A stretch of 64,000 nucleotides of DNA from the IMG/VR virus record IMGVR_UViG_3300011269_000001; one strand, written 5' to 3'. The notes under the pieces are model-generated. The model made no database searches. It worked only from the letters and a program-made list of their open reading frames with translations, and had not been told where the DNA came from. A program made the position numbers and the translations under genes. Source of the DNA: a virus. Shown here one piece after another: positions 15,108 to 18,078 of the stretch; the stretch's first letter is position 1, and every line of letters starts with the position of its first letter.

Positions 15108-16706
15108 CGAAAATATGAAATTGACCAACCGGGCCTACTGGACCCCGGTGGTCAACATGGTTGAAGTCGAGTGCGCCTGCCTGGAGAAGTTCTATGTTCG
15201 GGCCGACCGTGCTAAGATAGTGTGTCCGTCGTGCCGTCGCACGGCCAATATTCACGTCCTGAGGATAGCATGATTGGCGGAGCCAGCAAGCACAGTCACG
15301 ATGATGCCTGTTTTCTCCGCCAGGCAGGGTATAATCATCGTCTAAACGACTGCGTGAATTGTGGCTCCGGACCGGAGGAACACTTCGCCCCGGAGCTGTT
15401 CTGTACTTATCAGATGATTCCCGGTGACAGGCCAGAGAGATATGAATCGATGATACTGAGAAAAATCGCTGACTCCCCGGAGCCCTGCCGCGACCGTGAG
15501 CACCTGCCTCCGTCAATGATTAGCCTGAGCCCAGGCCTCTGGGAGCACACCTGCCCCGGTTGCGGAAAGAAAATTATTTTTTACATCTCCGGGAAGTTCC
15601 TGGAGTTGAAGCCCAACATGCACCGGAGCATTCTCCCGGTCCGCTTGCCGCGGAAAAACGAGGTCTGGATATGACAATGATAGTCGAAAATCGTCAACAG
15701 GTTATGGAGCCTTTTCTCAGTGAAAAGGCAAAAGCAGCTTTCGCGCCTGAGAAGTCGTTCAAGTCTCTGGAACGGTACCGGGATGAAACCCGTGAAGCCT
15801 CAGGTCGAATCAAGTGCATCTTTCTTTCGAAGCTTGTACCCAAGGTCAGTATCGAGGAACGGGTTGCGGAGCACTTTGCCGGAATTTTGAATCAGCTCGC
15901 CGAGTTCAATCTCCTTGAAGGGCACTTGGTCACCTTCAGCCGAATTGAGGCCATCATCTTCGGTGGTTACCAGGACCTGAAATGGACCGGGGAGCCGGTT
16001 TACGGCTACGCGTATCTGTGCTTTGTGCATGTACCGGCAGAGGAAGAATACCTGGCTACTGCCATCGCCAATGCCAATGACGTCACCGTCAGACGTGAAG
16101 GTTCGATTGGAGAAGTCTGTTATGATTTCTGTCCAATGTCCACGAGCGGGCAGACTCTGAAGGACTTGGCCGATTCCTTTAAGGGCGTTCTCAAGACCGG
16201 CGAGTCTGCGTAATGGGCTGCAAGCATGAGCATCAGATGCGGAAGCTCATCAACTTTGACGAGCAACGCGCTGACCCTGACCCTGAGTATCCAACGCCGG
16301 TAAACCACCAGGTGAACTTTTGTTGCGATTGCTGGCAGGTCATTGGCCAGGAGCGGTCGAACCTTTGGGGACGAGCTGTGTACCTCTGGTATCGGTTTGG
16401 CGTTCGCGCCCGATGACTCGATGGAAGATTTCTCGTGAAGCGCGTACGTCAGTGTCGAATCTGTAATTCGCGTCCGGCGCCGGCAGGCGTCATATGCGGC
16501 CTCTGTCTTCGGTCCTATCGTATAATCGTCCAGGAAGGTGCCTTCGATGTTGCTGTCTGGGCCGCAGAACGTGCCCGCAAGTACGAACGCCAGGCCCGTG
16601 GGGTTCTGAGTCGTCTGGAGAGTGAGTTTGTCATCAAGTTGATAAAGCGTCCGCCGCAGGTTAACAGTCGTCTTCTCCAGGCAATGAAGAACTACGAGAG
16701 TGTCTT

Positions 16707-17039
16707 ATGTCCTCCCCCAGAGTTGTCCACTGCAAGCGGGATAAATTTGACGTCTACATCGGCAGGCCCTCAAAATGGGGCAATCCCTTCAGCCACAAGT
16801 CCGGCACCTTAGCTCAGTTCCGGGTCGCTACCCGTGAGGAAGCCGTGGCCCGGTATCGTGAGTGGTTCCCCCAGCAGTCTCATCTTGTGGCCGACCTCGG
16901 GGAACTGATTGACAAGGTCCTGGGTTGATGGTGCGACCCCCATGCGTGTCATGGGCATGTGCTCGTGGATTTCGCCGGCCGGATGAAGATGCTCAGGGGT
17001 CTGAAATCAACTCCAGGACTAGCAGTTGGTTTTCCCTGA
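16707..17039 (+). CDS. DUF4326-family protein with in-frame TGA at 16926 (selenocysteine readthrough candidate or pseudogene)
   Basis: VVHCKRDKFDVYIGRPSKWGNPF...KVLG-TGA-WCDPHACHGHVL. The family motif LGCWCxPxxCHGxVL continues in frame past the stop. Confidence 0.8.
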
Positions 17040-18078
17040 ACTTCATGCTGTGGCAAATTTTGCCGTGGAGTTCGGGGTTGCTGTCCAGGGTCTCGGCATC
17101 GGGGGCCTCAGTGTTCAAGTCCCAGTGCGCGCCCATGCCCTCGGTGATGACCTGTTCATAGGCGTACGGGCCATTGAGGAGTCGACGGAAGGTTAAATGC
17201 ATCTCAGGGTTGACCGGGTTAAGGTCGTAGATGTCACCGTCTTCGTCTCGGACGATTTCGATGATGGCTCTGGCTTTCATGTCAGCTTCCCATCGCGGCC
17301 TTGGTGGTAGTGTCCTGCTTGGACGTCTTTCCAGAAGAGCATGGTCAGAACCCGATGCAGATGCCGAAAAAGTGCAAGACCCGATCGAGGATGAAATATG
17401 CCAAAGTCCCGAGGCCCCCAACCCAGAGCACGACCCGATGCCACCAGACCCTGCAGATTGGTCCGTACTTGGCTTTCATCGTGATGTCTTGCGCCAGGGA
17501 TGGTCGGGGTGGTTCTCTTCCAGGCGCCAGTTGTTGTCATCCCAGGCCTGGAGATAAGCGCCGCGTCCCGAATACTCTACCTGGTGACAACGTTCGCAGT
17601 GTCGACGCCGGGTGTAAGGGCGCCTGAACTTATAGTCCGGATTGTCCGGGCCAATGGTGTAGATTACCCAGAGATGAAATCCCAACCGGCAAAGCCAGGG
17701 GACTTCTACTTTGGGCTCGGGTTTGATGAGCACCCCATCCTTCCAATAGCCGCGCCGGCGCTCTTCCTCGTCCAGTTCGTCTTGGATTTCTTTGGCGCCT
17801 TCTCTGATGAGCCGGTCGCATTCCGCGTTGAAGCTCCTAAATAGACGCATCATGACGGCGATTGTACCAGATAATCCTTCTTGCAGGTAGGGCAGACGCC
17901 TTCGGTCGGTCGCTGACTGGTGGCCATCATAATAAAATGTGCACACGGCAGCCGATGGGTCCGGAGTCCGCGGGGTTTCCCGGTGCCCTTGTTGGTCTTC
18001 CGGCCCGCCATCCGAGCAAGAGTTCCACCGCCGCTGACGATGGGGGTCTTGCTGCCTTTGTTTGCTCCCGTCTTTGCG

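Follow-up and report, generated by a model that had tools for sequence, protein, structure and literature searches.

The SECIS element of Escherichia coli fdhF includes a 17-nt upper stem-loop that occupies nucleotides 15-31, begins 11 nt from the UGA codon, and carries G23 and U24 in its loop (PMC8659212). Among eukaryotic viruses, fowlpox virus encodes a selenoprotein, GPx4 (PMC1802603). Literature searches produced no report of a phage selenoprotein.

The DUF4326 family has been placed in the rhodanese-phosphatase superfamily by Iyer, Burroughs and Aravind, and its members are predicted to process the terminal phosphates of ADP-ribose derivatives during virus-host conflicts (PMC9503650, PMC7824862). 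DUF4326 is not treated as a selenoprotein, or as having a form with selenocysteine (Sec), in the literature that we found mentioning it. According to selenoproteome surveys, rhodanese-type and other thiol enzymes reportedly occur as Sec/Cys pairs in bacteria.

Here we describe a DUF4326 gene with an in-frame TGA in a phage genome, IMG/VR record IMGVR_UViG_3300011269_000001, of which a stretch of 64,000 nucleotides (the window) was analyzed. As in fdhF, the UGA stands where homologues have Cys, and a stem-loop in the coding sequence follows directly 3' of it; this stem-loop starts 10 nt past the UGA, as opposed to 11 nt in fdhF, and has G23-U24 in its apical loop. Unlike the fdhF element, the window stem is a perfect 6-bp helix of ordinary energy that lacks the bulged U17, which is known as a feature of the E. 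coli element and need not be shared by other hosts. The gene also differs from bacterial genes that use SelB and SECIS elements, because it is borne by a phage that has no Sec machinery, and its UGA is not kept in the closest relatives. Dependence of a virus-borne gene on host Sec machinery would be shared with fowlpox GPx4, which, however, uses a eukaryotic SECIS with SBP2 and eEFSec rather than a bacterial-type hairpin. DUF4326 would resemble the Sec/Cys pair enzymes in that one family has Sec and Cys forms differing at one conserved Cys. Those enzymes form Sec clades in cellular genomes, whereas the TGA forms of DUF4326 are sporadic and viral.

A DUF4326 gene with TGA at an invariant Cys codon

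The gene lies on the plus strand at 16707-17039. It starts with an ATG at 16707, and its translation begins MSSPRVVHCKRDKFDVYIGRPSKWGNPF. Codon 74 (16926-16928) is TGA, after which 36 sense codons (16929-17036), encoding WCDPHACHGHVLVDF...GFP, lead to a terminal TGA at 17037-17039. The features of the locus are collected in Table 1.

Table 1. Features in and around the phage DUF4326 gene, in window coordinates
Feature	Position	Strand	Basis or remarks
Small ORF with two CxxC pairs; enters the DUF4326 ORF by 105 nt, in another frame	16435-16812	+	No Pfam family
DUF4326 ORF, codons 1-73 (VVHCK and KWGNPF motifs), ending ...DKVLG	16707-16925	+	73-aa product recorded, 7 contigs (P0123)
In-frame TGA, codon 74, in the invariant first-Cys column of GCWCxPxxCHG; proposed Sec codon	16926-16928	+	TGY in 70 of 70 homologues
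Downstream 36 codons (WCDPHACHGHVLVDF...GFP) and terminal TGA	16929-17039	+	Length and tail are those of Cys-type relatives
Predicted weaker, G-U-rich outer helix around the hairpin, which could be the lower stem of a SECIS of ~40 nt	16930-16966	+	Minimum-energy structures; uncertain
Hairpin, six Watson-Crick pairs CCCAUG/CAUGGG, loop CGUGU (16945-16949)	16939-16955	+	Stem arms 16939-16944 and 16950-16955
Convergent ORF, 47-nt overlap with the 3' end of the read-through frame	16993-17421	-	ORF list

When translated through codon 74, the 110-aa product matches Pfam DUF4326 (PF14216) with an E value of 3.6e-23 over residues 5-87, and this match spans the TGA. The score is 82.4 bits, compared with a cut-off of 25, and 74.9 bits were obtained in a six-frame search of the genome. 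The match to the family is full-length, with the first Cys of GCWC encoded as TGA. Every position of the motif L-G-C-[WFY]-C-x-P-x-x-C-H-G is retained other than this codon, which is TGT in 45 and TGC in 25 of the 70 IMG/VR homologues (41-70% identical). In an alignment of 30 sequences, C74, C76, P78, C81, H82 and G83 are invariant, and the window gene keeps the invariant DUF4326 residues H8, C9, W24-G25-N26, C76, P78, C81, H82 and G83. A second stop codon or frameshift was sought in the gene and was not found, and its length equals that of its Cys-type relative (that is, one with a Cys codon at this position). These data bear out the preliminary description of the locus, which had read the TGA as a replacement of the first Cys of LGCWCxPxxCHG in a frame that stays open for 36 further codons with the rest of the motif intact.

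In an AlphaFold2 model (mean pLDDT 67), a strand at residues 71-72 is followed by a loop at 73-81 and by a helix starting at 82. C74 is thereby placed directly past the strand and ahead of the loop and helix, as is typical of an active-site Cys. No fold match in the PDB was found by Foldseek (E <= 0.001) or by sequence. Sec at this position would presumably stand in place of a catalytic Cys.

The TGA allele in soil metagenomes

A 1-kb stretch of the phage sequence was found in 15 soil-metagenome runs (2017 and 2019) that belong to 12 studies, and 8 of these runs contain all sampled words; no RNA run is listed among them. The TGA allele is identical in 8 soil runs and is partially covered in more (12 or more runs in all). 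Contigs from runs X5, X9, X12 and X13 show no difference over the TGA and the hairpin. Independent assemblies thus support the TGA well; read support had been named as a check in the preliminary description. In the protein collection, the truncated 73-aa product is present as two haplotypes, K10 (P0123, 7 contigs), which is that of the window, and Q10 (P0003). Identical contigs in independent runs, together with the two haplotypes, rule out an assembly error, and the earlier suggestion that the TGA could be a sequencing error fails because independent assemblies, runs and years carry the identical allele. The TGA allele has outlived at least one strain split.

The closest relatives, P0002 and P0122, are 90% identical to the window protein, have 110 aa with the same C-terminal tail, and encode Cys at codon 74, where they read LGCWCAPHACHGD. 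The TGA is therefore younger than the split from the lineage of these relatives. Their type co-occurs with the TGA allele in run X12, from which a diverged contig shows 19 differences in 139 nt and matches P0002 at Q56N, S58P and H59Q; Cys at its codon 74 is deduced from this match. Ten of the 13 listed differences in the contig fall at third codon positions, which indicates that the gene evolved under purifying selection.

At the protein level, the window gene differs from its Cys-type relative at 5 of the 36 residues behind the TGA and at 5 of the 73 before it. When the downstream changes are polarized with outgroups, A77D, D84H (in CHGD), E88D and D91G are apparently derived in the window lineage. 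The denser change behind the TGA is a weak and statistically non-significant hint that constraint might have been relaxed there. The preliminary description had set out what would speak against a Sec codon. The closest relatives indeed have Cys and there is no old TGA clade, but the TGA is not unique to one assembly.

TGA at the same codon in other DUF4326 genes

The pattern L-G-TGA-[WFY]-C-x-P-x-x-C-H-G was used to scan IMG/VR, JGI metagenomes and 185,579 species genomes. About nine further intact DUF4326 genes have TGA in the codon 74 column (TGA-type genes). Two of these, L073 and L074, are in other phages from IMG/VR that use the standard code and in which TGA is also a true stop. Seven real DUF4326 genes (L199, L201, L202, L205, L206, L209 and L210), with GC contents ranging from 26 to 63%, came from the JGI metagenomes, which also gave L200, a questionable remnant, and four chance matches. 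The species genomes yielded only L197, a remnant with an N-terminal deletion, plus chance matches. Both L197 and L200 have lost the N-terminus.

L201 (Ga0114958_10062336, GC 26%) is a TGA-type DUF4326 gene that lacks a hairpin and whose N-terminal extension is long. Possible explanations are a pseudogene or a giant-virus gene that follows a different (3'-UTR) SECIS rule; Rfam detects no eukaryotic SECIS in it. The TGA-type genes at L199:2397-3554 and L209:161-1821 adjoin phage tRNA clusters (Gln, Ser, Ser, Arg and Gly, Gly, Ser, respectively). Neither cluster includes a tRNA-Sec or a UGA suppressor, and no such tRNA was found beside the remaining TGA-type genes.

Scans for TGA at control positions gave one match at the second Cys (L211), none at the third Cys, and none for the F/Y variant in IMG/VR, numbers that are too small to discriminate. 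The L211 gene, at L211:3745-3779 on the minus strand (IMGVR_UViG_3300001335_000513), is an otherwise intact DUF4326 gene that reads GCW*KPLPCHGD. It shows no hairpin out of the ordinary and, as what is probably a simple nonsense allele, exemplifies the background. Broken N-termini occur in about 4 of 170 Cys-type genes (about 2%), and IMG/VR holds at least 120 Cys-type DUF4326 matches. The 12 TGA genes (counting the window gene, L197 and L200) require 11 changes on a tree, where they are scattered and form no old Sec clade. The one TGA sister pair, L206 and L210, is not significant, being no more than is expected by chance. By themselves, the counts of TGA-type genes fit background decay and are no argument for function.

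The hairpin of the window gene

The hairpin sequence CCCATG/CATGGG is found once in the window, as an exact match. If the U of UGA is numbered 1, then the 17-nt stem-loop comprises nucleotides 14-30, with the stem formed by 14-19 and 25-30 and the loop by C20, G21, U22, G23 and U24. The loop lies 16 nt from the UGA and has G as its second base, and G23 and U24 (16948-16949) are bases 2 and 3 of the third-Cys codon UGU. The perfect stem, the loop CGTGT, its distance from the UGA and the G at loop position 2 are thus all present in the sequence as first described. The outer helix in Table 1 appears in minimum-energy structures and is absent from the centroid structure.

The energy of this hairpin is no better than that of dinucleotide shuffles (z +0.78) and is ordinary among synonymous recodings (z -0.26). 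Its stem, in contrast, is longer than synonymous recodings of the same peptide provide (6 bp versus a mean of 3.6; p 0.038), and a stem of this length is present in only 7% of Cys-type homologues. The preliminary description had itself suspected that the stem is partly a by-product of the P-H and H-G codons. No Rfam SECIS family matches the region of the window gene or nine TGA loci. On its own, the window hairpin is weak evidence.

Hairpins of TGA-type genes as a class

The 12 TGA-type genes, including the window gene, L197 and L200, were compared with 155 non-redundant Cys-type genes that have the same motif; metagenome contigs supplied most of the TGA set and IMG/VR the controls, and the hairpin measures were chosen after the sequences had been inspected. 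The minimum free energy of nucleotides 4-48 is -12.8 kcal/mol for TGA-type and -8.4 kcal/mol for Cys-type genes (p 4e-4). Relative to synonymous recodings based on the codon usage of the respective locus, the mean z score is -1.36 for TGA-type genes, all 12 of which are negative, and -0.03 for Cys-type genes (p 1.6e-4). A contiguous stem of at least 6 bp that closes a loop containing G23 is formed by 9 of 12 TGA-type genes, compared with 11 of 155 Cys-type genes (p 3e-5). When stem length is evaluated against the synonymous null, p is 2e-5 for the 12 genes combined, and values below 0.05 are reached by only 1.9% of Cys-type genes. The stem is also longer than that of the nearest Cys-type neighbor on the tree in all 10 untied pairs.

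Codon choice within the hairpin follows the same division. The third-Cys codon is UGU, which supplies U24, in all 12 TGA-type genes, whereas Cys-type genes have 105 UGU and 50 UGC (p 0.012); the second-Cys codon exhibits no bias. In one form of the hairpin (class A), the loop CGUGU is combined with the 3' arm CAUGGG. This form is shared by the window gene, L199 and L074, the last having a GC content of 35%. Among genes encoding x-A-C-H-G, the string GCG-UGU-CAU-GGG occurs in these same three of four TGA-type genes and in none of 40 Cys-type genes (p 3e-4). A second form (class B), found in L073, L202, L205, L206 and L210, has a loop around UGUCA and stems of 8-9 bp. Among genes encoding x-P-C-H-G, the third bases of the Pro and His codons are able to pair in 5 of 5 TGA-type and in 16 of 42 Cys-type genes. 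Between L206 and L210, the stem contains a compensatory change of G-C to U-A.

Four genes lack a significant hairpin. Two are the remnants L197 and L200, the third is the stemless L201, and the fourth is L209, whose 5' end is cut and which has a 6-bp stem (p 0.30). The first three look like decay or unclear cases. As a class, TGA-type DUF4326 genes show adaptations in codon choice through which a hairpin forms at precisely this location. The search that had been proposed for independent homologues with both the TGA and a hairpin was therefore productive, in that the roughly nine intact genes have, as a set, significantly better hairpins around G23/U24 than Cys-type genes.

Phage genome and candidate hosts

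The phage record is a complete genome of 164,871 bp with 123-bp terminal repeats. The nearest cultured relative is Myxococcus phage Mx1, with which it shares 59.7% identity in the major capsid protein. Under code 11, the genome is 94% coding, and TGA is the commonest stop, ending 108 of 224 ORFs. The eight phage tRNAs include no suppressor and no tRNA-Sec; the sole, weak match to RF01852 is a tRNA-Thr(UGU). Searches of the phage for the SelB wing domain and for Sec genes found none. Genome-wide recoding of TGA is ruled out by the coding density, by the frequency of TGA as a stop and by the lack of a suppressor tRNA.

The nearest kin in IMG/VR, whose major capsid proteins are 72-76% identical, have no DUF4326 gene, which implies that the gene is accessory and dispensable. 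An apparent DUF4326 match in one of the kin, G008, is to a repeat protein. In the phage relative L224 (IMGVR_UViG_3300015360_000051), a long MORN-like repeat protein (DGDLPAIE..DG.K.W) at about 54.8-55.1 kb gives a spurious weak match to the query. In Mx1 (L217:3049-3807; OR576727.2 55548-56306), DUF4326 is fused to a YspA-like SLOG domain. Because this fusion is only 30% identical to the stand-alone window gene, it was rejected as an orthologue, and the two phages gained the domain separately.

The genes that neighbor the window gene belong to no informative families. In one contig of run X12, 48 nt are skipped (17295 to 17344), which corresponds to an in-frame deletion variant of the convergent ORF. 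A crude scan of the phage for read-through extensions revealed no convincing second selenoprotein candidate.

SelB, detected by its SelB-wing_3 domain, is encoded by 85 of 101 sampled genomes of Myxococcales, the order of Cystobacter fuscus and of the Mx1 host, which serves here as a proxy for the host of the phage. All five genomes of this order that were tested contain tRNA-Sec (about 70 bits) and SelD. No in-frame TGA interrupts SelD or the molybdopterin oxidoreductases in five Myxococcales genomes, which therefore offer no host SECIS for comparison.

Sec decoding and alternative explanations

The UGA occupies the position of an invariant Cys, and the allele is real and persistent. About ten unrelated copies share the UGA together with an unusually good hairpin, and for this reason we lean, by a little, toward Sec decoding of codon 74 in the window gene. 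For the class, the data are best explained by a mixture in which Sec is inserted in most of those TGA-type genes whose G23/U24 hairpin is good, and a few genes are decaying. In the window gene, the hairpin belongs to class A, the frame is intact and the allele persists, yet the TGA is young and the stem is energetically ordinary. The original proposal of a Sec-containing UxC protein that depends on host SelB is strengthened by the recurrence of TGA with hairpins and weakened by the Cys codons of the closest relatives and by the lack of a TGA clade.

If Sec is inserted, SelB and tRNA-Sec of the host would read the UGA at codon 74 as selenocysteine in a DUF4326 enzyme of 110 residues. The signal would be the hairpin 10 nt past the UGA, whose loop would present G23-U24 of the third-Cys codon UGU. 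SelB would be expected to bind this hairpin, the host would have the Sec trait, and Sec would replace a catalytic or metal-binding Cys. The conserved CxPxxCHG coding motif already sets the UGU in a near-palindrome (CCN UGU CAY GG) at SECIS distance and, because of this arrangement, may act as a proto-SECIS that allows repeated Cys-to-Sec switches. A broader hypothesis, for and against which we consider the case evenly divided, is that DUF4326 is an unrecognized selenoprotein family, the first in bacteriophages. According to this hypothesis, CxPxxCHG is a proto-SECIS, phages of Sec-competent hosts could exchange the key Cys for Sec repeatedly and independently, and host SelB is borrowed to make a more reactive counter-defense enzyme.

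The main competing explanation is that a recent change of TGY to TGA truncates a dispensable accessory gene at residue 73, with the hairpin being a by-product of the P-H-A-C-H-G codons. We hold this to be a real possibility for the window gene, although on balance a doubtful one. It would account for the Cys codons of P0002 and P0122, for the absence of the gene from the nearest phage kin, for the ordinary energy of the hairpin, and for the greater amino acid change behind the TGA than before it. Broken DUF4326 genes do occur (L197, L200, L211 and the approximately 2% of Cys-type genes), and the TGA is followed by T; UGA-U is a strong termination context. What a nonsense mutation leaves unexplained is the longer stems of the class relative to Cys-type genes, nearest neighbors and synonymous nulls, as well as U24 in all TGA-type genes and GCG-UGU-CAU-GGG in three of them. 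Moreover, the window gene has no second lesion and retains the frame and length of its Cys-type relative, and the TGA allele is dominant over sites, years and two haplotypes. The preliminary description had considered such a mutation the simple alternative to Sec. It is a serious one for the window gene, but it does not explain the class-wide excess of hairpins.

It is much less probable that the UGA is read through independently of Sec. In such a scheme, the hairpin would slow translation, and the UGA would occasionally be read by a near-cognate tRNA for Trp or Cys, yielding a little full-length protein. A hairpin behind the UGA would likewise be selected, and the host would need no Sec machinery. 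However, Trp at the invariant Cys would probably inactivate the protein, and the exact G23/U24 spacing and the preference for U24 are predicted by SelB recognition and not by pausing. We know of no bacterial precedent for hairpin-driven, Sec-independent UGA read-through. Finally, an error in sequencing or assembly or a reassignment of TGA throughout the genome, in favor of which there is nothing but the single odd codon, can be dismissed given the identical contigs in independent runs and years, a genome that is 94% coding with TGA ending 108 of 224 ORFs, and the lack of a suppressor tRNA.

Implications

If Sec decoding proves wrong, the window gene would be an ordinary young pseudogene, and the class-wide link between TGA and hairpin would still want explanation. 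If it proves correct, the gene would encode the first selenoprotein known from a bacterial virus, and phages would be seen to exploit the most elaborate recoding system of their hosts. Gene callers would systematically truncate such genes, as exemplified by the 73-aa product on record here. The first Cys of DUF4326 would be a chemically critical residue in an enzyme family that is thought to be active in NAD/ADP-ribose conflicts. The coding motif of the family would be pre-adapted as a recoding signal, and these genes would offer a natural setting in which the origin of Sec codons can be studied.
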